Assembly (NCBI GenBank): GCA_019750255.1
Contig: JAIEOU010000006.1
Coordinates: forward strand, 52,142-116,141
DNA length: 64,000 nucleotides
Direction: 5' to 3'
From: Patescibacteria group bacterium
Lineage (GTDB): Bacteria; Patescibacteriota; Minisyncoccia; Phycocordibacterales; UBA918
The stretch's first letter is position 1. The number at the start of each line of letters is the position of its first letter. A program made the position numbers and the translations under genes. The notes beneath the pieces were generated by a model. That model had not been told where the DNA came from and searched no databases. It saw nothing but the letters and a program-made list of their open reading frames with translations. Of this stretch, positions 9,001-64,000 are shown piece by piece.

Positions 9001-12000
9001 TCAGCTGGTTGTAATTGGAATCGAATTGTTTCATTCTCATTGAACGGAGACGTATCTGTTGTTGAAGCAGTGTTGCGGAAACCGGCACTCGACGATGAAA
9101 AGCGAGTGATGCCGTTCGAGAAATCTGCACTGGTAGCAAGGGCAAACTCATAGGTAAGATTCGACGCCCCATCTGGATCAACCGACCTGAAATCAAAGAA
9201 CGGCGTTGTGGAGGCAAACCGAATGTTATCGAACGGGGTGTTAAACGTAGTCGGAGCCGCTGGGCGTTCATCGACGTCTAATTTCTTAGTCAGTGTAATT
9301 ACGGCATCAGTGACGTCATCGGTGGTAGCGTTTGCACCCTCCTGCTCTACCATCACGTTGATGGTGGCGCTAGCAGCAAGGTTCTCTAGCAGAAACACGA
9401 GCACGCCCGAGCTGTTGTCGTGTGCGTTCTGACCACGCACGTAATGTGATTTTGTTTGGGCACCAGATACAGCAACACCATTGACCTCGACCGTAATACG
9501 CGTATTTGCGTGCTGAGTACCCGAGATAAGGGCATTGTTGTAGGTGAGCAGATAGGTGCCGGCTTGATCAACAATAATATCGTCATTATTCGTCGTTGTT
9601 GAATGTGTAAAGGCGGCTTCATCTTTGATGACAGACGTATCAAACAGGAGCGACTCCCGCGGCGAATCACTCCAGTCAATACCTCCCGATAGGTTACGCC
9701 CGCGGAGCACAATCGTGTCGGCTGTGGTCATCTTTTCAATATAAATTGAACCAACAAAGCCGGTAGAGGTGGAAACAGTCACGGTTCCTGTATTTGCTTC
9801 ACGTTCTGCCGTGATCGTGAGCACCTGATTTGTGGTGGTTGCCACAACCACACCTGACCAATGCAGTGATGAATTAAAGTCGGCATCAGCATCTGCATTT
9901 GCTGCCGTATAAGCTTGCGAAAATACTCCACCAGAGACTTGCACGCCATTAAGAAGGACTCTGCCGAGAATATTCTGGTTTGAAGTAGTGTCGCCAGTAA
10001 CCGGGACACTCAGGTGAACCCGATAGGTGCCGGGGTTCAAAATAGTAATATTCTCCGGCGATATCGTATTTGAGTGTATATATCCAGCGTCTTGTCTCGT
10101 TTCGGTCCACTGGAACGGAAACGGGGTGACCTGATTGAGGTTCGTTGAGTTTGTGGTGCGCGTAGTGGTCGCCGCAAAAACATCATTGGTCGGCTGTACA
10201 TACTCAACGTACATACTCGCCTGCCCTGAAACATTAACAATATCGGTTACTTCAATTGTTCCAAGACCCTGCACCTGCACCGTTACCTCATCACCCGCCT
10301 GTGCGCCACTCAACATAAACTGAGCATGTGAAGACGATTCGGAATGACTATTGGCATTACGTATAAATCCACTCCGTCCAAGACCTTGCGGTACGGCCAC
10401 ACCATTTACACGCACCTCGACACCAACACGACTGCGACTGGCAGCACCGTCAGTTCGGGTCATCGGAAGCGTCACGGCCATGAAATAATCACCCGACTGT
10501 CTCAGGGTGACCGTCTGCGAGTTCGTAGAGGTTGAATGGGAAAAGTAATACGAGTCAACGGTCGAGGTGCTCCACTGTAGTGGGCTGGCGGCATTATTAA
10601 GGTTCGTACTGCCAACTGTTCTCGTTCCAGTAAACCACCCAATACCCGAAAGCGCGTCGGAAGCTATCTGCCAGCTACGCAATTCTCTAAAGCCATCCAT
10701 ATCCAGCGGACCGAGTAGGTAGGTATACGGACTAAGATCAGGAGCATCAAAGCGGTAGCTGAACGTCCGCTTTTCACCCTCCTTGAGTTCAACCGCTTTC
10801 CACACGAGCTCAGTAAAATCCGGTCGAGATACGACCTCAGCACCGCCAGTATCTTCAAACACAAAACCTCGGGGCACTCGCTCTACAATATCCCCGACAA
10901 AACTGCGACGCGCCTCCACCGTAATTGCAACGTCATACGCCGCCAACGGATAAATACGCGTAGGCGCGGTACGCTCAATGTCGAACGGAATATACTCATG
11001 CACCTCGAAGAAATCTTCGATTACATGAACAACGGAACCGGCAGCATTTCGGTGGGTTAGCTGAACGGTATACCGTCCAGGCGTGTTGGTGTCACCAAAC
11101 TGTGACTCGTAGTCTGGAATATTCGTCACGTTATTCTTCCCACAAGCTCCCGACTGCACAACCGGAACTTCAGATATTGCATTATTGGGATCAATAATTT
11201 TTAACTCAAGATTGGCATCACAAATTGTGTCGCCTCGATCAGTCAAGGCGGCCATCTGGAGACGCACCCGCTCTCCCGGTCCATACATCGTTTTTGTGCT
11301 ATTGACCGCCAGCACTCCCCAGTAAAATTCAAATGAATCTACATAAATATGGTCGTTTTCATTAATAGAAATTGAAAGCGCGTATTTCCCAGCAACGAGT
11401 TTCTGCGGGCGGCCCTTAAAGTGCACTATCCAGGTTGTCTCGTCATGATATTCGATAGATACAGGCACATCGACCACTTCGCCAAAAGCATCAGTCAGCC
11501 GTACTGAGTCAACGCTGTAGATGTTTTCACTAAAGACAGCATTCCACATCCGGCGTAAGAAGCCATCTTGGGGAGCGTAGCTGAGAGTAAACGATGGAAG
11601 CGAACTAAGCGTCTGATCAATGTCAGGATTATGCAGCCCATGGAACTTAGGCAGGGCCAAATCGCGCTCATAGGTTATCTGGTCAGTCGTACTCGCGAGA
11701 CTAGCATCCTCGTAAAAACTTCCCGCCGTCACCTCGAGCCAGACACTCTCCACATACGCCGACTCCATCGCCTCGAGGTTACCCTCAAAGACGACTCGCA
11801 CCTCTAAGTTGGATAAGTCCGCAAGCTGTGGTGGTGTTTCAAAAGAAATGAGGTAATAACCCCCGTTAATACCATTGGAAACTTCATCTTCTACATCAAT
11901 AATTGATGCGACTTTAAATTCAGTCGTACTACCGTATCTGAACTCAATAGAAAAGCGCTGGGGACCACTGTAATCCGTTGCTGAGTTTCTTTTTGCTGCT

Positions 12001-13049
12001 AAAGACAACCGCAGTTGAGCATTATCAAGAACACTAGCCCCATCAAACTCGGGTAGAGTAAAGCCACTGAAACTGACCGGGTACTTACCGCACCCATCCT
12101 CCGCCTCACAAGCCGGAATACTTGCAACAAACTCTCCTGCACCGAGTGCTGGTCCAGACGGTACAACGCTCGTCTCAGCTGGTGCGATTTCGTTGACATT
12201 CGCAACTTCGCTATCACCACCAGCTTCGTCTTCTCCATCTATACCCTCATCTGCGGAAAAACTTTCTATAGCTGAGGATTCCTCATCCACTACCGGAACG
12301 CTCTCCAGCTCACCATCAAGAACCAGAACCTCTTCATTCACGAGCGGTACTTCATTAGGCGCTAACAGCGCTGGTTCCGCAGTAATTTCGGTCGGTTCCG
12401 ATTGTGACTCGGCATCGACGGCTGCTTCAGACACTTCTTGGGCATGCGGAAAAACGCCCCGACTAGTGGGAAACACTCCCCACACTATCGACGAATCACT
12501 CGGTACTCTAACTTGTGGTTCGGTCACCGGATCTGGCGACGGCGCGGGCTGTGGTTCAGTGTCGCTCGGAACCTCATTCACCGACTCCTCCACAATAGGC
12601 TCGGGTCGTTCCGCTTGAGGTAGAGCGGCTGCATCGGGTTGTACCGACCCTTCACCTTCGCTCTCTTCCACAGGAACCTCTACTGACTGTCCGCCTTCCG
12701 AATAAACCGAATCAATCGATACGCCCACTCCCTCTCCCGATGGACTACCATCCAGAGCAGGGGCAGACTCATCACCCCCACTCTCATTAGAAATCTGAGG
12801 CGTGACCACGGGGTAGGCAGCATTACCAGCGTTGAACTCTTGATACAACGCATATTCGCCAACATCCTGAACGAGAACCGACTCGATACCGGTCCAACTT
12901 GTCGTCTCTACCACTCCAGGAATCAATACGAGTTCAGTGGTTGTGTATACCGTTGTATCAATCGTCGCGTATACCAAAATTCCTCCGATGAAACACGGTA
13001 TGAGCAGCACCCAAGCGTAGGTGTGAAGGAGGGCTTTTTTAATAGTCAC
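1..13049 (-). CDS. Giant secreted/surface adhesin-like protein (>4,340 aa, 3' end runs off the left window edge). It has an N-terminal signal anchor, an acidic Pro/Glu-rich linker, a DUF2341-like module plus a LamG-type jelly-roll, FN3-like modules ending in 'TYYWRVRARD', and many beta-propeller-like repeats with 'WNG[ST]xW' signatures.
   Basis: Hand translation of the minus strand from a GTG at ~13049 gives a continuous reading frame to position 1. The ORF track shows no minus-strand fragments in this frame, and that is what you would expect if the ORF is open at the window edge and therefore not reported. The N-terminus 'VTIKKALLHTYAWVLLIPCFIGGILVYA' is signal/TM-like. The motif 'FYIYYGNPSAS' fits DUF2341, and 'GRIDEFRIASVERSAGWI' fits a LamG_3 fold. 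The repeated 'TYYWRVRARD/TYWWRVRGRD' matches an FN3 C-terminal strand. Repeated 'RYRLWNGTSW', 'VFRIWNGSSWSAT' and 'AMVWNGSSWTA' appear as recurring ccgttcca/ccattcca motifs on the plus strand. An upstream in-frame stop sits at 13086-13088. Confidence 0.6.
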   Translation of the reverse strand, partial: MTIKKALLHTYAWVLLIPCFIGGILVYATIDTTVYTTTELVLIPGVVETTSWTGIESVLVQDVGEYALYQEFNAGNAAYPVVTPQISNESGGDESAPALDGSPSGEGVGVSIDSVYSEGGQSVEVPVEESEGEGSVQPDAAALPQAERPEPIVEESVNEVPSDTEPQPAPSPDPVTEPQVRVPSDSSIVWGVFPTSRGVFPHAQEVSEAAVDAESQSEPTEITAEPALLAPNEVPLVNEEVLVLDGELESVPVVDEESSAIESFSADEGIDGEDEAGGDSEVANVNEIAPAETSVVPSGPALGAGEFVASIPACEAEDGCGKYPVSFSGFTLPEFDGASVLDNAQLRLSLAAKRNSATDYSGPQRFSIEFRYGSTTEFKVASIIDVEDEVSNGINGGYYLISFETPPQLADLSNLEVRVVFEGNLEAMESAYVESVWLEVTAGSFYEDASLASTTDQITYERDLALPKFHGLHNPDIDQTLSSLPSFTLSYAPQDGFLRRMWNAVFSENIYSVDSVRLTDAFGEVVDVPVSIEYHDETTWIVHFKGRPQKLVAGKYALSISINENDHIYVDSFEFYWGVLAVNSTKTMYGPGERVRLQMAALTDRGDTICDANLELKIIDPNNAISEVPVVQSGACGKNNVTNIPDYESQFGDTNTPGRYTVQLTHRNAAGSVVHVIEDFFEVHEYIPFDIERTAPTRIYPLAAYDVAITVEARRSFVGDIVERVPRGFVFEDTGGAEVVSRPDFTELVWKAVELKEGEKRTFSYRFDAPDLSPYTYLLGPLDMDGFRELRSWQIASDALSGIGWFTGTRTVGSTNLNNAASPLQWSTSTVDSYYFSHSTSTNSQTVTLRQSGDYFMAVTLPMTRTDGAASRSRVGVEVRVNGVAVPQGLGRSGFIRNANSHSESSSHAQFMLSGAQAGDEVTVQVQGLGTIEVTDIVNVSGQASMYVEYVQPTNDVFAATTTRTTNSTNLNQVTPFPFQWTETRQDAGYIHSNTISPENITILNPGTYRVHLSVPVTGDTTSNQNILGRVLLNGVQVSGGVFSQAYTAANADADADFNSSLHWSGVVVATTTNQVLTITAEREANTGTVTVSTSTGFVGSIYIEKMTTADTIVLRGRNLSGGIDWSDSPRESLLFDTSVIKDEAAFTHSTTTNNDDIIVDQAGTYLLTYNNALISGTQHANTRITVEVNGVAVSGAQTKSHYVRGQNAHDNSSGVLVFLLENLAASATINVMVEQEGANATTDDVTDAVITLTKKLDVDERPAAPTTFNTPFDNIRFASTTPFFDFRSVDPDGASNLTYEFALATSADFSNGITRFSSSSAGFRNTASTTDTSPFNENETIRFQLQPADALTDRATYYWRVRARDVSGSGEYGDWSVTQSLTVDLAVAVPNWYQSFDGQFEGNSFVGTVSSGNDRIQVDATVNQELLAAYAEGTVATPRYRLWNGTSWGLELNAVAVSNTINWVETAAAVNRNEYAMVTLDQSNDAFAQIYQASSSSWGNQVLLSNVLTSNIYRGIALTYESLSGDLMAISCTNGADPVFRIWNGSSWSATSTIDVSSLNNCNYIQAASDPTSDEIIVVVRDTGTQYEAMVWDGTAWVNNRIIGVPPAVAPEGVDVVYESSGEQALIVAANGTAASFAYTTWNGSEFSANTTQGIGNDLYYASLSPNPDSDAIVLCYVDADADIGAIRWDGGVWSATSELTTTGNAITGRPIDCEYETVAGRSGNIIAPYSDTGVDGDYHATFSTTTNSWTTNQAGSNMNDALWVQTERTSDGIVMALHYDDENDRLDTARWNGSGWTTSETLEAVIPAGGIYEAMSMSAKRFQFVQGTVRTPIINFNFVPNQATWGDITFSTSEPFGTDVKLRLRYTASTTCDTYVPNGALSGNSAGFDVTQSPINLTGLSTTTFSQICLEATLTTQGSESASLEDWILSWVREPRLIQSAYRWYSNGSFLTPTDAWPIGGVDIAESTAIDSSYAVSNSEAIRLRIALRGANVIQPTSTEQFKLQYAPGFTCSPGLAWADVGDTSSTTALWRGYENSIVGSDWYSASWLRRLKITVNKSLVSGVITNFPVYVNLDDLPDSFFTQVQSDGDDIRVTTSNGLTEVPFELVSINTTTRMGELHFKGDLSTSTDSEFYIYYGNPSASGYAVTAPFGRNNVWTNGYEAVYHLETSPASNLTDSTSNGRTLTTNGGMLGSQSTSSVMGNGVDFDGINDRLTNTAWSWLNTSNAVTVTAWNNVSTAETKTASLFGFNVSGTERLATHAPWNDAVLYWDYGTCCGVGGRLTTNYSAIRNKWTHIGLVSRGVATPGFMGIYLDGTAVATSTISDDPNVALTGFSLGSDLTTGGNHHDGRIDEFRIASVERSAGWILTERTNQSNPTGFYAVSSEELIGDGRVLPSTVLSASDYAETYEERNPTLANRNGLVVGNDAEWDFALQNNGAAANTNYCFRLVYNDGATLNTYTNYPRLITNAPPANPINEAPFDNEQTASTSPWFEFYANDALGDLISYEIEIDDSADFSSPVVTRNSVDTFALFTNLSNPSERSQYTSGQTIRFIPNAALANNTTYWWRVRGRDDFGSNTTGEWSVPTSVTVNSGTTITTWFQTTGEQFATNILFDAVVSTSSNDTGIDSGFTVATVTSSVIDYDDRDTGNAWGAFSYVHDVTSGSIRYYIEYRVGGDTFALVPDAALPGNSAGFTSSPVTLTNLNTSTYNELRIRAVLSGNSTVPRLQAWTVTWAETTTVPSLVTLFDNAKSGTTTPAVTFSSTDPESQDIRYEVQVSTSPLFTSSSTFLSGIDGGFINTASSSDTSPFRTGNVIRYQFQSPLLNGTTYWWRVRARDPGGSDTWTRYSSPRSFTIDTSITTSVWSQTTGDQFSTNSREDISTTTGAAVISTVVNEVMVTYGEGTGQAPRYRLWNGTAWDAAQTAESVGAQVRTVRLKAAPTRPEYALGTTGTDNDVNVQIYNSDSDTWSNVLELFNNVVNAERRAVDLAYETTSGDLMAISCAGTDAVYAIWNGTSWSATSSINLVNTNSCEWVLAASDPVSDEIIAVFRHTVAAGVDYEAMVWNGSSWTATTTFGELVEPESEGMALTYEESGNQAVLVVSTTTSTAAGSLFFRTWNGSAWSVASSATLGDHMEFGVLRPDVGTDRLALCYVDNDNNSGFALWNGSSWDAPVEVEPVAANGNNALPIDCAFETAAGRDGNLMITYSDNGTLSFYQTFSTVLSGELPLSTMPDGYEMEVVRAGDGRIHVTAFDDGALTNDDILASDWSGSFSALTTITGNSSQDANPEYTNASNMAARTYPIFTGGSMRSTSIDFDDGDGPRWEEITLNEATPGASTIEYRLYYRASTSLFTLVPDAVLPGNSVGFGSGPINISSLDTSIFNELQLDAQFICVAGNCPSLNEWAVEWSEGITVSGSAREFDGIATTTSGTVAVAVNGVLQAGKTGSITATGTWSVSNVSAFAGDTITVFVDGATDANEAVGVTTYDGIGNVTNMELTKRHLTIGSDDGATTTNAQFAGFDNVDDEDLFFTVGVGDVLTVCVEAVCGDGRLKVRSGSVYQPGALVATHDFANFGTFRPATNTLRISGSYNQQGTFIEDTSTILFTATSGTETLTATGTQYSFFNLSFGEASSTASYVLSRSLDVNGSLTITHGTLARATSTITVAGNLAIGFGGTMSGIATTTFDGTGSNTWGDSKASSTNIGFAVIDGAAKTITLSANVGAQSVTIGGDDTLNASGSGFNISVFQNWTNNNAFVAQGGTVTFVGTSTSGTISRGVSAFNNLSFTGAGSSWSFATATLVVSGSLSIATGTVTLPTGTTTIAGSFTNNGIFLHNNGEVRMTSTVAGRTITQSATVFNNAFYDLVFTGSGAWSFTESAATTSRNFRITAGTVTFPGGTLTVGGDFLTTGTGVFAHNNGEVILLVQQANTVSTNGSSFNNLRTRGSSGSWYGSGWTKRISVTVQSSQVPTTLTDFPVYINLSNLPDAFFSGVRSDGGDIRMTTADGVTEVPVEVVAINTVAKTGEVHFKAPTISSSTNTVFYVYYGNASAATNTASSTFGRNNVWTNGYEAVYHLETIPTGLMVDSTQNARNLTSFGAMDGSDSVPAVLGNGIDFDGVNDYLANAGFVWPNASNTITVTAWNNVSTAETKNANLFGFTESGGQRIAAHGPWGDAVLYWDFGTAGVPGRVTTSYASYRDKWTHMGLISPGAGGGNMSIFLDGAFIASSAAGDPSATLTGFSLGSLGASQYHDGRIDEFRIASVARTGGWMTTERNNQASSTTFYAVSGEELRRQRTFTDSNAVILGNFVLETGGDATFPNGTLSVGGSFDNDATFAANGGTVRFNSTAGAETI

Positions 13050-13101
13050 GTTACACAACCACCGCACTCCAAATGGAATGAGGGGCTATTTTAAATTATA
13101 A

Positions 13102-26908: not shown

Positions 26909-26924
26909 ATTGGTTTAGTATAGC

Positions 26925-26956
26925 AAAAACACCCCCGGATAACCGGGGGTGTTTTT
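26925..26956. terminator. Bidirectional intrinsic terminator (aaaaacacccccgg-ataa-ccgggggtgttttt)
   Basis: Perfect GC-rich 9-bp stem with an A-tract on one side and a T-tract on the other, seen directly in the sequence. Confidence 0.7.
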
Positions 26957-53072: not shown

Positions 53073-53166
53073 GATGCCCTAGTATAGCAAAATACCACCG
53101 AGCCCAAGAGGCCGGTGGTGTTTTGTAATTAGTGTTCTGTTCCCCTCGCGCAATAGAGCTCAGCAA

Positions 53167-53829
53167 CTACCGACCCCACCCATCGTTTTCGCCAGCTTCG
53201 TCTAGTATCGCGCGGACAGTTTCGCGATCGTTAGCTTGGCGAGCACTGCGGAGCGCATCGTGCTGGTCGTCATTAAGCGCACCATGCCGCGACACAGCAT
53301 GACTGTGGCCCGAACCCTTCCCGTGGTGGCCATTCTTGTGTTCACCACGGCCCGGAAGTCCTAAATTCTCAAAAATTTCTTGTGCCTCGGTGTGAGCTCC
53401 TGATCGTTTGAGTTCGTGCGCTTCGGCAAATAGTTCAAAATCAGCCTCGGTGGTGATGATATCCGCGAGTGGCGTATCCTTAATAGCCTGCGTAAAGGCG
53501 GCATAATCACCATCCTTGAGCGCCTGATGCATCGCGAGACGGGCGACATGCGCGGCTTTGCGCACCGCTGCCAGGGCTTCTTCATCAATGCCGGCTTGCA
53601 CTAATACATCACGAGCTTTTTCAACTTCACCTTCAATCCGGAGGGTACGAGCTTCTTGAAAGGCAGAGACTTGCTCAGTCGTTAATCCGGCGCGTAGTAG
53701 TACATCACTTCCAACGAAGGCTTGTGCCCCTGTTGCGGTTACCGCAAACGCGGCGATCGCGATGAGGAGCGATTTTGATGATTGCATACATACAAAGGTT
53801 ATGAACAATAAGAGCGGTAGCGTAACCAA
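53167..53829 (-). CDS. Secreted hypothetical protein, helical, with a His/Gly-rich segment
   Basis: The signal peptide follows an internal Met ('MQSSKSLLIAIAAFAVTATGAQA'). 'GHHGKGSGHSHAVSRHG' may bind metal. No family could be assigned. Confidence 0.5.
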   Translation of the reverse strand: MVTLPLLLFITFVCMQSSKSLLIAIAAFAVTATGAQAFVGSDVLLRAGLTTEQVSAFQEARTLRIEGEVEKARDVLVQAGIDEEALAAVRKAAHVARLAMHQALKDGDYAAFTQAIKDTPLADIITTEADFELFAEAHELKRSGAHTEAQEIFENLGLPGRGEHKNGHHGKGSGHSHAVSRHGALNDDQHDALRSARQANDRETVRAILDEAGENDGWGR

Positions 53830-53880
53830 TCAGAACCGCTCTCAATTACTACGCCACCCTTGTGTGGTTCTTTCGTACCC

Positions 53881-54387
53881 CTACAGTCCAACACTAGATA
53901 GAAGCCTCTGCAAGAGGTCTTGGGCCGCAGCATCGTTAGCCAAAGCCGTATCACAACTATCAAGTTCAAACTGCTCTTCGCCCACGGCAATTCTAAATCT
54001 ATATTCGATACCATCAGTATACGTTTCGCACATTTCAGGAGTGATGCTTTGCTCTAGCGCCGACAGGTAGTCGACAGTGAAAGTGTCGCGCAGTTCCCTT
54101 AAGAGTGGAGCAGAAATCTCTCCCTCTTCCTTTATTCGCGCTTCCCGGTCACCCGCCGCCGGAAAACTAGCATAGGTACCGTCAGTTGCGAGCTGGAAGC
54201 TGGCACAGAGCCCACCGCGCTCGCAGCCGCCGTACGCCCCACCAACTATGACGAGCGCGTCGGTGTCTTTAGTGAGTTCGCCGAAGAATGAAAATTGCTG
54301 AGAAAATCCATACAAATAGAGATATGAACCAACACACACTCCGACCACAAAGGTAATGAGGATGCTGACAATATCTTGGCGACGCAT
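53881..54387 (-). CDS. Membrane-anchored hypothetical protein
   Basis: 168-aa ORF. The N-terminal TM is 'IVSILITFVVGVCVGSYLYLY' and several Cys residues are present. Confidence 0.5.
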   Translation of the reverse strand: MRRQDIVSILITFVVGVCVGSYLYLYGFSQQFSFFGELTKDTDALVIVGGAYGGCERGGLCASFQLATDGTYASFPAAGDREARIKEEGEISAPLLRELRDTFTVDYLSALEQSITPEMCETYTDGIEYRFRIAVGEEQFELDSCDTALANDAAAQDLLQRLLSSVGL

Positions 54388-54491
54388 AGTTTTATTATAG
54401 CACCGACGCCGTTAGCGCTTTTATCTTGCTCACGTGTTCAATTGTCGATTACTCACTGACTTCTGTGACCTGCCCTCTTCGGGGCGTGGGG

Positions 54492-57400
54492 TTACTCAGG
54501 AAGCGGTGCGTCAGTGTCTGGCTCTGTCACCACTACTTCCGCTGGAACTGGTTCAGCTGGTACTGAATCATCAATCGGTTCAATGACTGGTTCTTCCACC
54601 TCCTCTACCACATTCACTTCCTCCTCTTCTGCAATCACTTCTTCACTCACCTCCTCGGGCAGTTCGGGGGTAGAAGTCGAAGTCGAAGTCGTATGAGGCA
54701 CGAGGGGCAGAGGCTCAGGTGACAGAGACGGTTCTGGGGTTGGGTCAGACTTATCTAGAATTTCTTGAAGCTGGCCTTTGTTGATACAAACATCTTCGAT
54801 ACACAACTCATCCGTCTCGACTTTTTTCGTCTTAAAGAACTCAGCAAAACCTGTCACTCTATCAGCCAACTCTTGCACGGCCTTCACCACCACCGCCACC
54901 AGATTACCGTACGAAATACTTTTAGAGCCTTCAACTCCATCAACGACTTCTGGAATGATGAGTTCCAGCTCTTGCGCAATGAACCCTACACGCATATCCT
55001 CGATATTTTTCATCTTGTAGGAACGCGGCTGCAGTTGCATGAGCGTATCAAGTCCATAGGTGAGCGTCTGTACATCTTCGTTATGTTCAACATCGGCTGG
55101 GGTGGTCCATTCACCAGCCACATTTAGTGTTGCGACGTTCAGCGTCCCACTACTGTCGCCTCCAAAGAACGAAAGCACGCCACTTGTGGCCATCGATAGA
55201 CTGCGGAAGTCAGTGTTCCCTGACTCAGAAATGATAAATCCGCCAAAGTAATCATTGCTTGACTGGGTCACGGAGAGGCGAGCGGCTGGGGTTGTGGTAC
55301 CAATACCAACATTGCCATCATCGGTAACGGTGACACCGAGTTCACCCAATGCTTCCTGTACTACATACGCCCAACGGGAAAGTTTTGAAGTAATTTTCTC
55401 TAAGAATGAAACCCCAAGGAAGGTGTGTGGGTTTACATAGACCAAAACCTTGCCTACCCCACTATCATCCAACGTTGTCGTGTCCAGATCTTCGAGCGCA
55501 ATACCCACGACACGGCCCGCATCAGTCGCTTTCATACCCACACCAGACCGTCCCGAGGACGTGATGTAGTCACCTTTTTTAATCATGCCGTTTTCCAGAG
55601 ATACCTTTGTTGGCACTCGACCGACGAGCGCTACTGGTTGTTTTTCAGCCGTACCGCCAGTGATATCAATGCCTAGTTTAATACCCGGAGTGGTGGTGAT
55701 GATACCAAGCGCATTGTCGTCGTAGGCATCAGTTGATTTCGCAATTAGACCGGCTGAGGACTGAGCTACGGTAACGATATCACCCGCCTCAAGCGTGTCG
55801 TCGTCGGTCGGGAAATATTCAGCAATGTCTGCCCCGCCCGAGTTCCATGAGCCACCGGTCTGCGTATAGGCATCACCTGCGGCACTAAAGCGGAAAAGAT
55901 TTTGGCCATTGAGAGAAAAGGCTGCCAGATCCGTACTATTAACTTGAAATACCTTATACGAAGTAATAGTTGGTCTAATAAAGACATTCGCTGGATTCAC
56001 CGATGTCGTACCTCCTTCGGCTTGTAGCGGGAGTCGGTTGTACACAACAGTGGACTCGCCCATGTAGACATTCTTTCCCGCATTAGGCTGCTGAGCAATT
56101 GGTCGTCTCATCACAACACGCACCTGCATCCACGCATCGCCACTTGCAGGGTTAATTAAGTCTCCGCTTTTCTTAATCGTTCGCCATGTGGATGTTCCCA
56201 ATCCAATCTCACTAGCGGCGGTTCGAACCGATATTGAGATGACACCCGGCCTGAATGTATCAGCGTTGCCGGTCCGGGCAAAAGCGGACTGACTATTTAA
56301 CTGACTATTATTAATGTGTTCCGAAAGGTATGTTCCCGTTGTAAGCCAACCAGCATCGTAGATTGCGGTAGTAAAGCCACCGCCCAGCACCATCATGTAG
56401 CGACCATCTGGACGCTGGATAGAGTGAGCACCCTGACCAGGTGTATTTCCAACACCAGGTCCGGTACTCATGGTATTTGCTACAGGATCGTAGATTGCGG
56501 TATTCGAACTGCCACCAAGTACCAGTAAGAACTTACCATCAGGACGCTGGATAGAGTGAGAACCGTTGCCAGCTACTGCCGGAAGAGCTGGTCCGGCAAC
56601 CGAGGTGTTCGTTACTGGATCGTAAATCGAGGTATTAGTACCGCCGGCACCAAACACCACCAAGAACTTACCATCCGGGCGTTTAATAGAGTGTCCGCCC
56701 GTACCAATACTACCCGCTGCGGTCCCCACTAGAGCTGGGCCAGTGTACATAGTATTAATAACTGGGTCGTAGATCGAGGTATCGGTATTTAATCCCGACA
56801 CTATCAAAAATGTGCCGTCAGGGCGTTGAATTGAGTGGGCGCCAAGATTAACTCCACTTCCTGCTATGTTCGGGCCTGGACTCATGGTATTCGCTACCGG
56901 GTCGTAAATAGTTGTTTGAGTACCGTTGTTACCCAACACAATCAAGAACTTTCCATCTGGACGCTGAATAGAGTGAGAGCCCACATTGGCCGAGCGTCCA
57001 ATCGCAGGTCCAGCCACTATCGTATTAGCAACCGGATCGTAGATGTTAGTGAGACCGCCATTATTACCCACCACAATCAAGAACTTTCCATCTGGACGCT
57101 GAATAGAGTGAGAGCCATTAGAAGGATTGCCACTAGCTATGGTCGGTCCTGCCGTGATGGTATTGGTGTCTGGATCGTAAATATTAGTAGCGTTACTATT
57201 GGCAGCTACCACGATCAAGAACTTTCCGTCTGGACGCTGAATGGAGTGAGCGCCTAAACTAGATGTGTTTGCCAAAGTTGGTCCTCCACTAAACACCCCT
57301 CGGTCGTCACTCTGCGTGGAGCTACTGACAAGTCCTATTCGGTACGGTAATGACAACCCATTATCTCCACCAATCAAACTAGCGAGTAGTGGCACAGAAG

Positions 57401-60400
57401 ATGAGGCGAAACTGAGTGCGGTAGACGTAGCAAAACCCGTTGCAAAATCAGCATTTTCCTTTCGAAAGACCGACTGATTATCAATCGTGAAGTTGTAAAG
57501 AGCCGGTTGAGCGAAATCTCGTCGGTATTTGGTATCGCTCTCTCCAAGCCAGGTGTTAGTTGGTGTAAACGGCTGTCGTGGTTGCGCATGTGGTGCAACT
57601 GATCGTGAGAGGGTGACCCGCACCTTTGCCCACTGCGCCCCATTTACCGGACGAATCGGAAAACGATTACTCGTCGTTGTGGCGTACGGTGCGCTTGTTA
57701 GTCCCCCTTGCGTAGTAGCCGTCTTTATAGCCACCTCAATTTTACCTCCTCCATTACCATTAAAGTTAAGGAGTGAGCTTTGATTAAGTTGAGAAATATT
57801 TAAGTCTTCTGATTCGTACGAGCCCGACATTACCCAGCCTGCGTCGTAGAGGGTGGAGGCAGTACTATTACCCAAAACCATCAAGTACCGTCCGTCCGGC
57901 CGCTGGAGCGTGTGAGCACCCAAACCTGCAGACGCCGTGAGGGTTGGGCCGGCCGTCATCGTATTTGCAATCGGATCGTAGATGTTGGTGGCTGTACCCC
58001 CACTAAGCACCACCAAGAACCTACCATCGGGGCGTTGGATAGAGTGAGCGAATGGCGAGACGGTTGCGGTGAGGCTTGGGCCGGTACTAAAAGTATTATT
58101 TATAGGGTCATAAATAGCGGTATTGGTTCCAAGAAATCCTAGCACCACCAAGAACCTACCATCGGGGCGTTGGATAGAGTGACCACCACCGCCAAGAATA
58201 TTAGGCAGCGTCGGCCCTGCCGCTATAGAATTAGCGACTGGGTCATAAATGTTGGTAACAGTACCGTTACCGATTAACACTAAGAACGTACCGTCTGGAC
58301 GCTGGATAGAATGCGAGCCTAGTGTAGCGGCGCTCGTTAACGTCGGGCCGCCACTTACTGTATTAGCCACCGGGTCATAAATATTAGTAGCAGTGGAACC
58401 ACCCGCTACAATCAAGTACGTACCGTTCGGACGTTGAATAGAGTGAGCACCCATGCCTGAGATACCGTTAGTGAGGGCTGGGCCTTCTATTATAGTATTG
58501 GCTACAGGGTCATAAATATTAGTTCTGGTAGGGGCGCCGTTACCTAAGACAATTAAGAACTTTCCGTCTGGACGCTGGATAGAGTGCGCACTTTGATAGG
58601 CTAGAGTGGTTAGGTTGGGCCCGGCACTAGTAGAGTTAGTCACCGGATTGTAGATAAGGGTATCTACGGTGTTGAATCCCCGCACAATTAAGAACGTACC
58701 ATCTGGGCGCTGAATGGAGTGGGCGCCATCACCGAGACTTGAGGATCCTAAAGTTGGGCCGGTGCTCATCACGCCTGCACCAAGATTGGTAGTCGTGGCA
58801 AACAACAACTTTATTTCATTAGAAGTTGTGGCTATGCCAGCACTAACACTGGCACCACTTACGGAAAAATCAGCGGTTGTTTGTTTTGTTACAGAGGACG
58901 TAGAGGTAGCATTCACAGAGAGTAACGCCAGTGGTCCCGTCGTACCAATTCCAAGCCTGCCTTGTGAATCTAACGTCATGCCGGTCACGCCATTAGTTCT
59001 AAACAGCAAGGATTGATTGTCATTAGTGCCAAAGATGGCCGTAGTTCCAAAAGCATTACCACCCTGAACAAAACTGTTGGCGGCACTACTGGTAATCCAT
59101 TGGGTTGACGTACCGGTTGATTGCAGAATTTGACCAACAGTTCCAGTAGCATTAGTACTATCGCGCAGTGCACCTGTAATGGTAAGGGCGGTGGTTGTAG
59201 CGGCGGTAGCCGTAACTCTTGTCAGGGTCGATAGTCCACTAGCGTTAAGGGTGACAACGTTAGAGGTGCTCGCGTTAGTAGTGGTGGCATTAAGCGTAAC
59301 AAAATTTGAAACGCCGGTTGCAGTCAAGCCAGCAAACGTTGGAGCCGTATTAAAAACAACTGTACCAGTACCGGTCTCGTCAGACAACAAGGCGGCTAAC
59401 TGAGCGGAGTTGGTGAAGGCGGCTGAGAACCCAAGTGATGAGGTGGCTGCCCATGCAGTCCCGTTGGTGGTTGAGGTGAGGACACTACCCACTGCCCCAG
59501 TACTTGAAGACGAATCGGCAAAGCGGCCGTTGAGACTGAAGTCGCCAGCCACAGTGAGCCTAGTAGCTGTAGCGTTGGTAGCCAAAAGTGAAGTCAAAGT
59601 AGAGAGGCCGGTGACGTTTAGCGTACCGATTGCGCTGATATTAGCACCCGTGAGATTACCAGTGAAGAACCCGTTACCAACTACTGATAGGCGATTTGTA
59701 GGTGAACTTGTACCTAGACCAAGGTTACCCATAGAATTCAACCGCATCGCTTCAGCTAAAGGTGTTTGTGTAACACCGCCACTGCCAACGAGATTTATGG
59801 CAATAGCTGCCTGTACCCAGTTATAATTTCCGGCCGTAGTCCAATTCATAATAGTGTTCGTAGTTACACCTTGACGATACGATCCGGCGGCAAACACCGA
59901 CTGCACGTCGTTCCATAAAAGTGTTTGTGCCGGATCGACTGTGGGTCCGCCCGTCTCAGTAGACACAACATCTAGTACGAGAGTGGACGGCGTAGAGCTT
60001 ACATTTACGCTCTGTGCGGTTCCACCATTTGTGGCTGTTGCAACCGCGTAAATTGGAGAAGCCTGATTAACGTTTGAGAGCGTTATAGCGGTCATTTGCG
60101 TGGCTCGGAAGCTAGAAAAGTTGGCGGTCAACGTGTTACTCCCAGTTGTAGGGTTCACCAAGTACCACACCTCAACCCGGTTAGCATTTGAACCATTTCC
60201 CACCGACGTAGCGAGCGTAAGCGGGGTGCCGTTATATGTTATAGACGATACGGTTGAACCATTTGAGGCAAAAGCCACCTGGACTACAAGTAGCGTATTA
60301 TCTACGGCGGCTGACACTGCGTGACTAGTCGTCAACTGATTAGTGTTACCGTTTTTAATAGTTGTGGTATTTTGAACATTTACCGGAGCCGCAACTGCAT

Positions 60401-61346
60401 TTCCAGTACGAAAGACCAAGTTACCGGAACCTCCAATGCCTGTTCCGCGTGATGCATCAAACCGTATATCACCACCGGCAACATCAGTACCGGAAGCATT
60501 CACTCCGCGCAGCGTGAATAACGACGGCGCACCACCTTCTCCTGTCCCAACCACCATGTCTGCCTTCGCAAGGTGAAGCCCCGCCACTGGGTTACTTACG
60601 CCAATCCCCACGTTGCCACCAGAACTAATCCGCATTACTTCACTGCCAGCATTGAGCCACTTATAGCCCGAACCCTGACTACCGTTAATCTGAAACATTC
60701 CATCGGAAGCGTTGCGACCTAGATCGAAAAAGAATTGACCGGTATTTTCGCTAACACGAATTTGGGTAGTAGTTCCATTTGCAATGTGCAAAGTATTCCC
60801 TGGCGTACTCGTCCCCACTCCTAGGTTCGTTCCCGTAAAGACGAAGTTCGATGACGAAGCAAGGGTGTTAACCGCACTCGTGTATAAAACAGTGTTCGCT
60901 CCCCCAAGTGCGGAGACTCCGGTACCACCCCGGTTTGCAGCGAGAGTACCGGTAGTATCACTAAGCGCAATCCCGAATGTTGACGTCGACACCCACTGCG
61001 ACGTCGCACCGTTCGTCTGCAGGATTTGTCCGACCGTACCAAGGGAGTTAGAAGAATCACGGAGCGCACTGATGCGCAGCGCCATGGCGGTTGATGAGCC
61101 AGTGAGGACAATACCGTCGGTTGCAGTGAGAGGATTGAGGAACACGCCGTTATCGACCCAGTTACTACCGCCGCCCCCTCCAAGGCCAAGAGTTGAAGTA
61201 GCTACCCAAGCAGTACCGGTTGCGGTAGCGGTGAGGACACTGCCTACTGCCCCAGTGCTTGAAGATGAGTCAGCGAAGCGGCCAATGAGACGCATGTCGC
61301 CGGCGACAGTGAGGCGTGCCGACGGTGAGGTTGTGCCGATGCCCAA
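54492..61346 (-). CDS. Giant surface protein (2,284 aa). It has tail-fibre-like N-terminal repeats ('IGTTSPSARLTV'), Gly/Thr/Ser-rich beta-helical-like regions, two seven-bladed Kelch-like beta-propellers ('HSIQRPDGKFLIV...NIYDPVANT' x14), a C-terminal peptidase-S74 intramolecular-chaperone auto-processing domain and an acidic Pro/Glu tail.
   Basis: The ORF starts at TTG and has no signal peptide. There are 14 repeats of 'AHSIQRPDG[KT]FL[IV]V.G......IYDP..NT', and each set of seven ends 'IYDAGW'. The C-terminal 'LQPRSYKMKNIEDMRVGFIAQELELIIPEVV...ISYGNLVAVVVKAVQEL' is the S74 chaperone domain signature. Confidence 0.85.
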   Translation of the reverse strand: MGIGTTSPSARLTVAGDMRLIGRFADSSSSTGAVGSVLTATATGTAWVATSTLGLGGGGGSNWVDNGVFLNPLTATDGIVLTGSSTAMALRISALRDSSNSLGTVGQILQTNGATSQWVSTSTFGIALSDTTGTLAANRGGTGVSALGGANTVLYTSAVNTLASSSNFVFTGTNLGVGTSTPGNTLHIANGTTTQIRVSENTGQFFFDLGRNASDGMFQINGSQGSGYKWLNAGSEVMRISSGGNVGIGVSNPVAGLHLAKADMVVGTGEGGAPSLFTLRGVNASGTDVAGGDIRFDASRGTGIGGSGNLVFRTGNAVAAPVNVQNTTTIKNGNTNQLTTSHAVSAAVDNTLLVVQVAFASNGSTVSSITYNGTPLTLATSVGNGSNANRVEVWYLVNPTTGSNTLTANFSSFRATQMTAITLSNVNQASPIYAVATATNGGTAQSVNVSSTPSTLVLDVVSTETGGPTVDPAQTLLWNDVQSVFAAGSYRQGVTTNTIMNWTTAGNYNWVQAAIAINLVGSGGVTQTPLAEAMRLNSMGNLGLGTSSPTNRLSVVGNGFFTGNLTGANISAIGTLNVTGLSTLTSLLATNATATRLTVAGDFSLNGRFADSSSSTGAVGSVLTSTTNGTAWAATSSLGFSAAFTNSAQLAALLSDETGTGTVVFNTAPTFAGLTATGVSNFVTLNATTTNASTSNVVTLNASGLSTLTRVTATAATTTALTITGALRDSTNATGTVGQILQSTGTSTQWITSSAANSFVQGGNAFGTTAIFGTNDNQSLLFRTNGVTGMTLDSQGRLGIGTTGPLALLSVNATSTSSVTKQTTADFSVSGASVSAGIATTSNEIKLLFATTTNLGAGVMSTGPTLGSSSLGDGAHSIQRPDGTFLIVRGFNTVDTLIYNPVTNSTSAGPNLTTLAYQSAHSIQRPDGKFLIVLGNGAPTRTNIYDPVANTIIEGPALTNGISGMGAHSIQRPNGTYLIVAGGSTATNIYDPVANTVSGGPTLTSAATLGSHSIQRPDGTFLVLIGNGTVTNIYDPVANSIAAGPTLPNILGGGGHSIQRPDGRFLVVLGFLGTNTAIYDPINNTFSTGPSLTATVSPFAHSIQRPDGRFLVVLSGGTATNIYDPIANTMTAGPTLTASAGLGAHTLQRPDGRYLMVLGNSTASTLYDAGWVMSGSYESEDLNISQLNQSSLLNFNGNGGGKIEVAIKTATTQGGLTSAPYATTTSNRFPIRPVNGAQWAKVRVTLSRSVAPHAQPRQPFTPTNTWLGESDTKYRRDFAQPALYNFTIDNQSVFRKENADFATGFATSTALSFASSSVPLLASLIGGDNGLSLPYRIGLVSSSTQSDDRGVFSGGPTLANTSSLGAHSIQRPDGKFLIVVAANSNATNIYDPDTNTITAGPTIASGNPSNGSHSIQRPDGKFLIVVGNNGGLTNIYDPVANTIVAGPAIGRSANVGSHSIQRPDGKFLIVLGNNGTQTTIYDPVANTMSPGPNIAGSGVNLGAHSIQRPDGTFLIVSGLNTDTSIYDPVINTMYTGPALVGTAAGSIGTGGHSIKRPDGKFLVVFGAGGTNTSIYDPVTNTSVAGPALPAVAGNGSHSIQRPDGKFLLVLGGSSNTAIYDPVANTMSTGPGVGNTPGQGAHSIQRPDGRYMMVLGGGFTTAIYDAGWLTTGTYLSEHINNSQLNSQSAFARTGNADTFRPGVISISVRTAASEIGLGTSTWRTIKKSGDLINPASGDAWMQVRVVMRRPIAQQPNAGKNVYMGESTVVYNRLPLQAEGGTTSVNPANVFIRPTITSYKVFQVNSTDLAAFSLNGQNLFRFSAAGDAYTQTGGSWNSGGADIAEYFPTDDDTLEAGDIVTVAQSSAGLIAKSTDAYDDNALGIITTTPGIKLGIDITGGTAEKQPVALVGRVPTKVSLENGMIKKGDYITSSGRSGVGMKATDAGRVVGIALEDLDTTTLDDSGVGKVLVYVNPHTFLGVSFLEKITSKLSRWAYVVQEALGELGVTVTDDGNVGIGTTTPAARLSVTQSSNDYFGGFIISESGNTDFRSLSMATSGVLSFFGGDSSGTLNVATLNVAGEWTTPADVEHNEDVQTLTYGLDTLMQLQPRSYKMKNIEDMRVGFIAQELELIIPEVVDGVEGSKSISYGNLVAVVVKAVQELADRVTGFAEFFKTKKVETDELCIEDVCINKGQLQEILDKSDPTPEPSLSPEPLPLVPHTTSTSTSTPELPEEVSEEVIAEEEEVNVVEEVEEPVIEPIDDSVPAEPVPAEVVVTEPDTDAPLPE
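56300..58800. repeat. Array of ~14 DNA repeats (~140 nt period) encoding the Kelch-like blades (recurring ccatctggacgctggatagagtg)
   Basis: Recurring near-identical 25-30-nt blocks on the plus strand. The plus-strand ORF-track peptides 'ELSIWTLNRV' recur as antisense shadows. Confidence 0.7.
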
Positions 61347-61358
61347 ATTTCCATTATC

Positions 61359-64000
61359 TTAAAGGGTCACCTTCGCCACCCCGGCACTGTCAAATAATTG
61401 TGCCAATAGACCGGTTGTAGTCCCCGCTCCCATCACCGTCAAACGGGCCGGCGTTCCAATAGTAGACGAAATACCGACATTTCCAGTTACTCCACTCATC
61501 ATCAGGGGTGAAACCGTACCATCATTAATATTGTTTGTCGGTTTAAAGAGTAGGTATCTATCCGTAGTCTCTCCCGCCGCAATCATGTACCAATTGTTGA
61601 GCTGACCAGCGCCTTCCATGTAGTACCCAGCTCGCCCTGTCCCGCCGGTTGTTCGGGCATTAACAAACGCGTTAAATGGATCCTCGACCCTGATTTGTTG
61701 ACCAAAGCTATTACCCCCAACAACGTGTACTGGTGCTTGCGGTGCTGCTGTTCCAATCCCGATGGCACCTACAGCAGTATCAGCAAACAAGAGCGGAGTT
61801 GATGACGTACCAACCCTAAGGTTACCCCAGACATCAAGCCTAGTAGATGGCGTACTTGTTCCCACTCCCAAGTTCGTTCCTGTAAAGACAAACAATGATG
61901 AAGTCGCTAAGGTATTGACCGCACTGGTGTACAAAATAGTACCAATCCCCCCAAGCGCGGAGACGCCGGTACCGCCACGGTTAGCAGCTAAGGTGCCAGT
62001 CGTATCACTAAGAGCAATCGCTAAAGACGACGTCGATACACTATCAACCGTACCGTTGGAGGCTACCCGGGCGAGGAAGCCGTTGGTCCAGGTGGTGGTG
62101 GTAGCGAGGTAGATGGTACCGGCAGCCGCGTTTAATGTATTGCCCGACCAGGATAGTCCCGAACCAGCGGTGATGCGAGTACTCGGGGTGTTATAGAAAG
62201 AATTCCAGTTGGTTCCGGAAGCGGACAGGAAACCCTCGTAGCCGGCGGCGTAGCCGAGGGTGAGCGTGCCGCTAGTAGTGACGGGGCCACCGGCGGTGGT
62301 AAAGCCAGTGGGGACGCCGAGGTTGACGGAGGTGACGGTGCCGCCACCGAGCCCGAGACTTCCGGTCGCCACCGTGAGGGCGCCATTTGATTCGATGTAG
62401 AGGCCAACGCCGGTAAAGTCGGTGATCGAGTCACCGTTCATAGTAATGCGCGCAGCGGCCAGCGTGCCGGTCGCGGTAATGTTCGTAGCCACGATACCGT
62501 TAAAGGTCGAGGTGCCAGTAAATGTAGGGGCGTTGTTAAAGACCGCCTGACCCGTCCCCGTTTCGTCAGACAACAACGCCGCTAACTGAGCGGAGTTAGC
62601 AAAGGCGGCCGAGAGGCCTAAGCTTGACGTCGCCACACTATCAACCGTGCCGTTGCTGGCCACTCGAGCGAGGAAGCCGTTGGTCCAGGTGGTGGTGGTA
62701 GCGAGGTAGATGGTACCGGCAGCCGCGTTTAATGTATTGCCCGACCAGGATAGTCCCGAACCAGCGGTGATGCGAGTACTCGGGGTGTTATAGAAAGAAT
62801 TCCAGTTGGTTCCGGAAGCGGACAGGAAACCCTCGTAGCCGGCGGCGTAGCCGAGGGTGAGCGTGCCGCTAGTAGTGACGGGGCCACCGGCGGTGGTAAA
62901 GCCAGTGGGGACGCCGAGGTTGACGGAGGTGACGGTGCCGGCATTGGTTACACAAACACCATTGATTGAAAAGCAGCCACTAGTGAGGTTAACCGTCCCG
63001 CCAAAAGTAGAGGTGGCGGCACCTGACACATTAAGGACATTACCAATAGTGGCAGAGCCTCCAACCACCAAAGTGGTGGCGGTTGTGCTTGTGCTCACAC
63101 TAAGCCTAGTACCGTCGTAGGTAAAGTCAGCTGATTGAGTCAGGACTGAACCAGTCGCGTTCACAAAGGGAATGCTCGCTGCAATGAGGGTATTGGGTGT
63201 ATCAAGTAAGCCGGTATAGGTAATATCAGTTCCACCCACACACACGCCGTTTATTGAAAAACAGCCACCAGTGAGATTAACGGTACCGCCAAAGGTAGAG
63301 GTGGCAGTACCTAACACTGAAACTACATCATTAATTACAGCAGACCCTTCAACCGCGAGTGCATTTGAATTAAAAGTCGAGGAACCAACTACGATACTTG
63401 AAAAAAATGATCCAGCTCTTGTAGTTGATCCAATAACTACCCCATCAATAGAACCGCCGCTCAGCGTGAGTACGTTACTCACATCCGTATCAGTAACACA
63501 GTCTACACAACCACCTCGAGCACGTACGAGAGCCAATGTGTCGACAGAGCTAATTACAGTACCATTAACGGCAATACCTTCACCACCAGAAAAATCAACG
63601 TCTCCTGATTCCCCATTGATGCTCTCAACACCACTAAATTCTTCAGCAATGAACGATACTGTAGGAGCATTGGCCGGACCAGTAATGCGCACATTTGAAC
63701 CGCCTCGCACACGATTAACTACATTCGAAGCAAAGAGCTCACCAGTACCCAAATCAATAGTAGCTCCCCGCGTAACCACCCCTCCAGTTGCCTCGAGCAT
63801 ACCCTGAACCCCTAAGGAACCTGATACAGTCGCTTGCGCTAGTGCGGCCGCACCACTGACCGTCACATTTGTACTCGTTAATGAACCGGCATCTACGTTA
63901 CCTGTTGCTACCACACTACTCATTCTACTCACCCCCAACACTGTTAGCGGCGCCTCAATAGTGGTCGTTCCAAGTGTCGTGCTTAACCCTCGTACGGTAA
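61359..64000 (-). CDS. Giant tail-fibre-like Gly/Thr/Ser-rich surface protein. The N-terminus runs off the right window edge. It shares repeat modules with the 54492..61346 product.
   Basis: >860 aa within the window. 'IALSDTTGTLAANRGGTGVSALGG' and 'SSLGLSAAFANSAQLAALLSDETGTG' are shared with the downstream giant ORF. An internal 199-aa-period duplication is present. The reading frame is open up to position 64000 in this frame. Confidence 0.75.
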   Translation of the reverse strand, partial: TVRGLSTTLGTTTIEAPLTVLGVSRMSSVVATGNVDAGSLTSTNVTVSGAAALAQATVSGSLGVQGMLEATGGVVTRGATIDLGTGELFASNVVNRVRGGSNVRITGPANAPTVSFIAEEFSGVESINGESGDVDFSGGEGIAVNGTVISSVDTLALVRARGGCVDCVTDTDVSNVLTLSGGSIDGVVIGSTTRAGSFFSSIVVGSSTFNSNALAVEGSAVINDVVSVLGTATSTFGGTVNLTGGCFSINGVCVGGTDITYTGLLDTPNTLIAASIPFVNATGSVLTQSADFTYDGTRLSVSTSTTATTLVVGGSATIGNVLNVSGAATSTFGGTVNLTSGCFSINGVCVTNAGTVTSVNLGVPTGFTTAGGPVTTSGTLTLGYAAGYEGFLSASGTNWNSFYNTPSTRITAGSGLSWSGNTLNAAAGTIYLATTTTWTNGFLARVASNGTVDSVATSSLGLSAAFANSAQLAALLSDETGTGQAVFNNAPTFTGTSTFNGIVATNITATGTLAAARITMNGDSITDFTGVGLYIESNGALTVATGSLGLGGGTVTSVNLGVPTGFTTAGGPVTTSGTLTLGYAAGYEGFLSASGTNWNSFYNTPSTRITAGSGLSWSGNTLNAAAGTIYLATTTTWTNGFLARVASNGTVDSVSTSSLAIALSDTTGTLAANRGGTGVSALGGIGTILYTSAVNTLATSSLFVFTGTNLGVGTSTPSTRLDVWGNLRVGTSSTPLLFADTAVGAIGIGTAAPQAPVHVVGGNSFGQQIRVEDPFNAFVNARTTGGTGRAGYYMEGAGQLNNWYMIAAGETTDRYLLFKPTNNINDGTVSPLMMSGVTGNVGISSTIGTPARLTVMGAGTTTGLLAQLFDSAGVAKVTL
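62041..62939. repeat. Near-perfect ~300-bp direct repeat (62041..62342 and 62638..62939; period 597 bp = 199 codons) inside the giant gene
   Basis: Long identical runs (tagcgaggtagatggtaccggcagccgcgtttaatgtattgcccgaccagg...) appear at both positions. The ORF track gives identical 71-aa peptides at 62132..62434 and 62729..62944. Confidence 0.85.

Follow-up and report, generated by a model that had tools for sequence, protein, structure and literature searches.

Bacteria that belong to the Candidate Phyla Radiation (CPR) encode giant membrane or surface proteins, such as those of 1,392-4,163 amino acids (aa) in Vampirococcus lugosii, which are thought to mediate host recognition and attachment (PMC8080830). 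Here we examine a gene that resembles this group, located in a 64,000-nucleotide (nt) stretch of contig JAIEOU010000006.1 from a Patescibacteria group bacterium (assembly GCA_019750255.1, positions 52,142 to 116,141), hereafter called the window. Its minus strand carries two very long open reading frames (ORFs) separated by a single in-frame TAA codon, and comparisons with homologues indicate that these ORFs are the two parts of one ancestral gene for a surface fibre. The joined product shares with CPR giant surface proteins its size (3,305 aa), an N-terminal anchor, repetitive beta-rich modules and propellers, and the company of a surface and cell-wall gene island. Unlike those proteins, however, the window copy is interrupted by a stop codon, each of its parts stands alone in its cluster at 90% identity within a set of 15 billion proteins, and its best match reaches 44% identity. 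By analogy with the CPR proteins, the split fibre may have a role in host attachment.

A second likeness is to phage tail fibres, tailspikes, and endosialidases. The C-terminal domain scores above the gathering threshold of PF13884, the GFIAQE... core is shared, and the NCBI name of the downstream protein refers to a tail fibre. In contrast to phage fibre genes, the split gene lies among cellular housekeeping and cell-wall genes rather than in a prophage, is approximately 10 times longer, encodes an N-terminal signal or anchor, and has 'ADVEHN' in place of 'SDxRxK'. Finally, the locus resembles ordinary nonsense-interrupted genes, with a single in-frame stop, homology on both sides of it, uninterrupted homologues, and annotation as two genes. 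We find no essential difference from such cases, and only the size of the gene makes the interruption conspicuous.

Results and Discussion

Two giant ORFs share one reading frame

The two ORFs match exactly two GenBank proteins encoded on one 123-kb contig of a Patescibacteria metagenome-assembled genome (MAG). The upstream piece, MBY0310079.1, is listed as 'hypothetical protein K2Q16_02970' (1,016 aa), and the downstream piece, MBY0310078.1, is listed as a 'tail fiber domain-containing protein' (2,284 aa) that begins at a TTG codon. On the minus strand, the junction reads GTG GCG AAG GTG ACC CTT TAA GAT AAT GGA AAT TTG GGC ATC GGC, which is translated as ...VAKVTL*DNGNLGIGTTSPSARLTV. The in-frame TAA (61361-61359) is followed by a G and constitutes codon 1,017 of the joined frame. 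Between this codon and the TTG at 61346, which is the first possible start, lie four sense codons (DNGN); the next possible start is an ATG located 22 codons into the downstream ORF. The same frame is open upstream of the TAA from the window edge (63998) to 61362 (879 codons), and downstream of it for 2,288 codons, until the stop at 54492-54494. Because the upstream ORF runs 137 codons past the end of the window, the joined frame comprises 1,016 + 1 + 4 + 2,284 = 3,305 codons.

The ORFs also have repeated sequences in common. The peptide IALSDTTGTLAANRGGTGVSALGG is present in both, and the DNA segments 60801-60992 and 61848-62039 align without gaps over 192 nt at 76.6% identity (E = 7e-39). 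The original prediction, which was made from the letters of the window, had described two giant ORFs parted by one in-frame TAA with a TTG four codons on, a downstream ORF that lacks an ATG start and a signal peptide, and repeat modules common to both ORFs, and the sequence agrees on each of these points. Two of its figures need adjustment. The DNA repeat is real but slightly less similar than the ~80% given, and the ORFs do form a single joined frame, but one of 3,305 codons rather than just above 3,100.

An ORF of 192 aa runs antisense to the junction (60784-61362, plus strand), and its own TAA overlaps the TTAA palindrome of the minus-strand stop. This ORF is almost certainly a spurious shadow ORF.

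Homology runs through the stop codon

Alignments to homologous proteins continue across the TAA. Specifically, 44 BLASTP high-scoring segment pairs, found in 39 homologues, cross the stop with at least 40 residues on each side. The longest collinear crossings include that with homologue P0146 (721 columns, q949-1599 to s1071-1730), along with those with P0149, P0207, and P0091. At the level of the local module, identities to P0048, P0063, P0003, P0025, and P0015 range from 52 to 76%, with the highest value extending over ~71 residues, and all 14 of the closest segments, including those of these five proteins, are internal to their chains. Identities to the window segment in a multiple alignment of the module range from 33 to 59%. 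The residues that precede the stop take part in these alignments as well, as is evident when the window sequence QLFDSAGVAKVTL*DNGNLGIGTTSPSARLTV is compared to NIFTAAGNAVLTVLSNGSIGVATSSPSALFTV of P0025.

A scan of GTDB, using one genome per species, yielded 73 loci from other Patescibacteria, which together contain 283 module copies, and none of these copies has a stop or a gene boundary at the equivalent place. Copies that are not cut by a contig end are preceded by tens to thousands of open codons (median in the hundreds). The window copy alone has a stop one codon before the matched segment together with a long ORF (879 codons) beyond it, and its stop is therefore exceptional.

We also derived a position profile from 844 'GxhG[IVL][GA][TS]' motifs in the homologues. 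The profile has an alternating hydrophobic strand pattern at positions -9 and -7, and the end of the upstream ORF (V-A-K-V-T-L) conforms to it. The residue that most often occupies the position of the stop is T (169 copies), followed by L (163), D (94), S (59), N (58), A (58), and Y (49). Codons for Leu (TTA), Ser (TCA), and Tyr (TAT or TAC) are each one substitution away from TAA, and a change of TTA to TAA would convert CTTTTAG to CTTTAAG.

We searched 1.84 billion cluster representatives exhaustively with HMMER, using the downstream 900 aa as the query, and obtained 7,156 representative proteins at E <= 1e-3. The best non-self matches are mosaic homologues of 3,049-3,109 aa with 43-44% identity, and hundreds of mosaic homologues occur in MAGs of Paceibacteria, Saccharibacteria, Kaiserbacteria, and Doudnabacteria. 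More narrowly focused searches gave little. A junction pattern with NNN at the stop had no match in JGI metagenomes, nor did a protein-guided scan with the flanking unique peptides, and the scan of GTDB representatives returned neither the source genome nor a close relative. A protein search with a short junction query produced one distant match and did not return even the self proteins.

The components of a predicted exported fibre are divided between the two ORFs

The upstream protein begins with MFKSPPSRLKKITRRSAPWALLCCSLIVLTLLA, in which a basic stretch is followed by a 17-residue hydrophobic stretch (maximum Kyte-Doolittle value of 2.23 in a 17-residue window). This N-terminus is predicted to be a signal peptide or an N-terminal anchor. 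The downstream protein has no hydrophobic N-terminus (maximum of 1.18 over 17 residues). Thus, a signal or anchor is present on MBY0310079.1 only, and the stop parts it from the other 2,288 codons. The homologous giant proteins start with classical signal peptides and carry the C-terminal domain on the same chain.

The Peptidase_S74 domain resides on the downstream piece only and holds the GFIAQE...SYGNLVAVVVKAVQEL core that is common to the homologues. The Ser-Lys pair of endosialidase chaperone domains serves in autoproteolytic release. The corresponding 'SDxRxK' motif, which is kept in 27 of 42 homologous Peptidase_S74 domains, is absent from the window protein at 55080-55097 (minus strand), where 'PADVEHNED' is found opposite 'ASDIAYKDT' of the closest homologue, P0098. 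The window domain could be a non-cleaving variant, or the missing motif could reflect relaxed constraint.

Between these ends, the joined protein contains seven GIG motifs, in modules of the form 'G-x-h-G-[IVL]-[GA]-[TS]' with a 'AGDMRLTGRFADSSSSTGAVGSVLTATATGTAWVATS' extension, and the downstream protein has 13 'HSIQRPDG' repeats in two blocks (Table 1). A sequence search of the PDB with the C-terminal 402 aa gave no match. A monomer AlphaFold model of a 120-aa segment around the junction is of low confidence, with a predicted local distance difference test (pLDDT) score of 60 and a predicted template modelling (pTM) score of 0.34. The stop, at residue 46, falls within the best-scoring block of the model (residues 31-80, pLDDT 67-77), which lends weak support to a single ancestral gene.

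We conclude that the two ORFs derive from a single ancestral gene that was cut by one TAA, because homology crosses the stop, the module is uninterrupted elsewhere, the residues before the stop fit the module profile, and the signal and the Peptidase_S74 domain are on different pieces. This conclusion agrees with the original prediction of one giant gene interrupted by one stop, whose downstream start would fall in an internal repeat motif. The homologues are continuous at the level of modules and alignments, and a search for homologues that have a gene boundary and a signal peptide at this place found none.

Could the downstream ORF be a gene of its own?

GenBank lists the downstream ORF as a separate gene, and one explanation consistent with this listing is functional fission. 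The stop would be tolerated, and a 2,284-aa protein would be made by re-initiation at the TTG located 12 nt past the TAA, so that the N-terminal protein would be anchored and the fibre would be a protein of its own. A second option is that the allele with the stop acts as an on/off adhesin variant within the population. We regard this explanation as unlikely, despite several features that accord with it. The downstream ORF is intact over 2,288 codons, and operon partners in the window are 0-12 nt apart and mostly lack Shine-Dalgarno sequences, such that coupled re-initiation seems to be their usual mode. In addition, some family members, such as P0126, resemble phage fibres in that they lack a signal peptide and begin ~20 aa before a GIGT motif. 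However, not one of the 283 module copies marks a gene boundary here, and a start at the TTG, which is a weak initiator codon, would fall in the first strand and turn of the module, cutting it there. The downstream product would also lack a signal peptide, although the family is exported.

The sequence before the TTG provides a further point against fission, as it has no Shine-Dalgarno motif, sigma-70-type promoter, or '-10' box of the kind that precedes other genes in the window. A sigma-70 scan likewise found no internal promoter or terminator at the junction. The hexamer GATAAT, located 6 nt before the TTG, was considered as a -10 box and rejected, because it does not fit the TAnnnT boxes before other genes. 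Boxes of the latter type end 4-10 nt before the start codon at 8 of 29 genes, compared to 2.7% of random positions, whereas Shine-Dalgarno motifs are almost never present before genes in the window. These patterns suggest that leaderless mRNAs are widespread. Some re-initiation at the TTG may nevertheless occur, because window genes rarely have a Shine-Dalgarno motif and because partners adjoin at 0-12 nt.

The stop might also be both real and maintained. The adhesin could be made as two products by TAA-N12-UUG re-initiation in a largely Shine-Dalgarno-free organism that relies on leaderless or coupled translation, or TAA and sense alleles could be present side by side in the population and switch a costly 3,305-aa fibre for host attachment on or off. 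We consider such an arrangement improbable.

TAA is a normal terminator in this window

If the TAA were read as sense, the full 3,305-aa protein would be made. Of the 30 gene ends in the window, 14 have TAA, 14 have TAG, and 2 have TGA. The junction tetranucleotide TAAG ends 4 of the 29 other genes, and the downstream ORF itself ends with TAAC. The window uses the standard code, because ORFs tile it under this code and TAA is a frequent terminator; reading TAA as sense would join no other pair of long ORFs. Genome-wide reassignment of TAA was rejected on these grounds.

Programmed read-through or recoding at this one site, whether by a local signal, an ochre-suppressor tRNA, or reassignment, would account for two ORFs that are in frame, for continuous homology, and for an intact downstream ORF. 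We nevertheless judge it to be very improbable, given that TAA is a normal terminator, that TAAG occurs at four ordinary gene ends, and that no other ORFs merge. Folding of the 161 nt that surround and follow the stop is no more stable than that of shuffled sequences (z = -0.47), no tRNA or Rfam family was detected in the window, and none of the 283 homologous modules has an in-frame stop that would point to conservation. To our knowledge, UAA is the least leaky bacterial stop codon, and Patescibacteria have no known reassignment other than that of UGA to Gly in Absconditabacteria/Gracilibacteria. The read-through or recoding option offered by the original prediction is thus disfavoured. If it were true, the product would contain VTL-x-DNGNLGIGTTSPSAR across the junction.

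Origin and age of the stop codon

The explanation we favour, with a probability of roughly 0.55, is a real and very recent nonsense substitution that has created a null or truncating allele, and hence an incipient pseudogene. The ancestral gene of 3,305 codons would have produced a giant cell-surface fibre composed, in this order, of an N-terminal signal or anchor, many 'GN(V/L)GIGTTSPSxxLxV' modules, two Kelch-like propellers, and, at the C-terminus, a chaperone domain of the Peptidase_S74 type. One very recent base substitution, for which TTA (Leu) to TAA would be the most economical change, would then have placed a TAA at codon 1,017 inside a fibre module. Ribosomes would terminate there to release a 1,016-aa anchored stump, and the remaining 2,288 codons would be left untranslated, or would be expressed at a low level by re-initiation at the TTG to give a product that lacks an export signal. 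The fibre would thereby be inactivated or truncated in this genome or strain, as an incipient pseudogene or as a null allele segregating in the population.

The proposed age comes from the condition of the downstream part, in which there is no further stop or frameshift. Of all single substitutions in these 2,288 codons, 2.9% would create a stop. The absence of disabling events therefore limits neutral divergence since the stop arose to less than ~0.2-1.5%, which makes the event recent, provided that the downstream part is untranslated and that the ratio of indels to substitutions lies between 0 and 0.2. Thus, either the stop is very recent or polymorphic, or it is artefactual, or selection still acts on the downstream part. 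In the window, we found no diversity-generating retroelement or reverse transcriptase to which the stop could be traced as a product of hypermutation.

The main rival explanation is a consensus or assembly error, in which case the gene would be an intact one of 3,305 codons with a wrong base call in the MAG. Such an error could be a shift from T4A1 to T3A2 at CTTT|AAG, or a chimeric strain consensus in a repeat-rich gene. We consider this explanation possible but doubtful. It shares all the evidence for a single gene and is compatible with a fully intact downstream ORF, and the stop sits at the boundary of a T-run and an A-run. Moreover, the source is a MAG, and internal repeats of 77-97% identity complicate both assembly and read mapping. 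The upper end of this range is due to a 300-nt direct repeat in the upstream ORF (62029-62328 versus 62626-62925, 97% identity), which encodes a repeated 'GGTVTSVNLGVPTGFTTAGGPV...' block, arose by recent duplication within the ORF, and may have made the assembly ambiguous.

Several points argue against such an error. Substitution errors that leave length and frame intact are uncommon both for short-read graph assemblers and for long-read consensus, and the contig is long (123 kb). In addition, a 1.9-kb Logan contig from run DRR851322 corresponds to window positions 53254-55119 at 99.95% identity. This contig ends short of the junction, and its single mismatch over these adjacent 1,866 nt indicates that base accuracy nearby is good. 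A match this close also indicates that the same strain was sequenced in an independent public run. A literature search for run or accession identifiers found nothing.

Four considerations weigh against a recent nonsense mutation. First, the stop is seen in an assembled consensus only, which does not decide between a mutation and a base error. Second, selection on a downstream product that is still translated would be equally expected to leave 2,288 codons intact. Third, the TAA-N12-TTG spacing is like that of other gene pairs in the window, and re-initiation is therefore feasible. Fourth, there is no close orthologue, and continuity is accordingly shown by modules and by alignments of up to ~700 aa only. 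We infer that the TAA is genuine and not an error of the consensus.

Breaks and partner genes in related loci

A survey of the 73 related loci, conducted in all six frames, covered 106 open stretches of at least 800 codons. One giant homologue is split in a comparable manner. At position 2379 of a locus from a Saccharibacteria MAG (L009, contig CAZBJN010000071.1), an in-frame TGA interrupts a module ('...GGTWQ*NAIANAYLD...'), with 792 open codons before it and 539 after it. This case indicates that single-stop breaks are occasional and ordinary, at a rate of roughly 1 per 100 giant ORFs.

A Tagabacteria MAG (CAWGAO010000007.1) has two in-frame TGAs (L066:11726 and L066:13502) between stretches of 257, 591, and 478 codons, and the second TGA immediately precedes a 'GQVGIGMGSTTSP' motif. 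The locus could be one more fibre gene with interruptions, or the pattern could be an off-frame artefact.

Six ORFs of ~250 aa that lie upstream of giant genes in the same frame were also considered as further splits. This possibility was rejected, as each is a separate conserved gene with a helix-turn-helix (HTH) and a transmembrane (TM) segment, after which the giant gene begins with its own signal peptide. The HTH-like N-terminus of these proteins has the form 'YSRDY(L/V)A(K/R)LAR...IVA.Q.GRQWF' and is accompanied by a TM segment in six distant Patescibacteria genomes. This conserved gene might serve the giant fibre gene as a dedicated regulator or as a partner.

Genomic surroundings

The window is from the cellular genome of an uncultured Patescibacteria (CPR) bacterium, and it encodes TypA/BipA, an RluA-type pseudouridine synthase, a sigma-70 family factor, and an ABC exporter. 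Coordinates of the features discussed herein, including those of a large envelope and surface gene island, are collected in Table 1. A second giant ORF occupies positions 1-13085 of the minus strand, where at least 4,361 codons are uninterrupted before the ORF is cut by the window start. Its Pfam matches are Laminin_G_3, Ig_Rha78A_N, and DUF2341. Together with the split gene, this ORF brings the coding sequence for giant surface proteins to about one third of the window.

Table 1. Positions of the split fibre gene, its parts, and other features. Coordinates are those of the window, except where a related locus (L) is named.
Feature	Coordinates	Strand	Remarks
Upstream ORF, C-terminal 879 codons of MBY0310079.1	61362..64000	-	Start and predicted signal/anchor ~411 nt past the window end
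In-frame TAA(G), position -6 of the 'hxhx..GNhGIGTTSPSxxLxV' module	61359..61361	-	Sequence and module alignments
Four sense codons (DNGN) from the stop to the annotated TTG	61347..61358	-	Part of the conserved module
Downstream ORF MBY0310078.1, 2,284 aa	54492..61346	-	TTG start; no signal peptide or Shine-Dalgarno motif
Conserved fibre module across the stop, GLLAQLFDSAGVAKVTL*DNGNLGIGTTSPSARLTVAGDMRLIGRFADSSSSTGAVGSVLTATATGTAWVATSTLG	61185..61409	-	Alignments to internal segments of homologues
Kelch-like 'HSIQRPDG' blades, first block (~7, ~45 aa apart)	57812..58742	-	Kelch_6, 32.6 bits versus cut-off of 25.3
Kelch-like blades, second block (7)	56282..57272	-	Repeat analysis
Peptidase_S74 (PF13884, chaperone of endosialidase)	54942..55079	-	33 bits versus cut-off of 22, residues 2090-2135
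TAnnnT box, often TGCTATACT (extended -10)	e.g., 26909-26928, 53073-53092, 54388-54407	-	Upstream of gene starts
Envelope/surface gene island	13162-45192		Cohesin- and dockerin-domain proteins, Big/DUF11 proteins, 2 GT2 glycosyltransferases, 2 GH18, CAP-domain protein, M23 peptidase, LD-carboxypeptidase, PD40 repeat protein
~250-aa HTH+TM gene	L005:8309-9097, L008:7432-8196, L030:4278-5060, L044:2498-3220, L063:8492-9229, L065:4664-5383		Directly upstream of the giant gene

Implications

The interruption is most likely of an ordinary kind, made conspicuous by the giant fibre gene in which it occurs, and it does not indicate a new mechanism or a change of genetic code. Its main consequence is for annotation: the entries MBY0310079.1 and MBY0310078.1, of which the second has an implausible TTG start within a repeat module, should rather be treated as a single interrupted gene of 3,305 codons. 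Should the stop be real, one of the giant surface fibres of this strain has been lost or truncated. Since fibres of this kind are proposed to attach episymbiotic Patescibacteria to their hosts (PMC8080830), the stop would then represent strain-level variation in host interaction.

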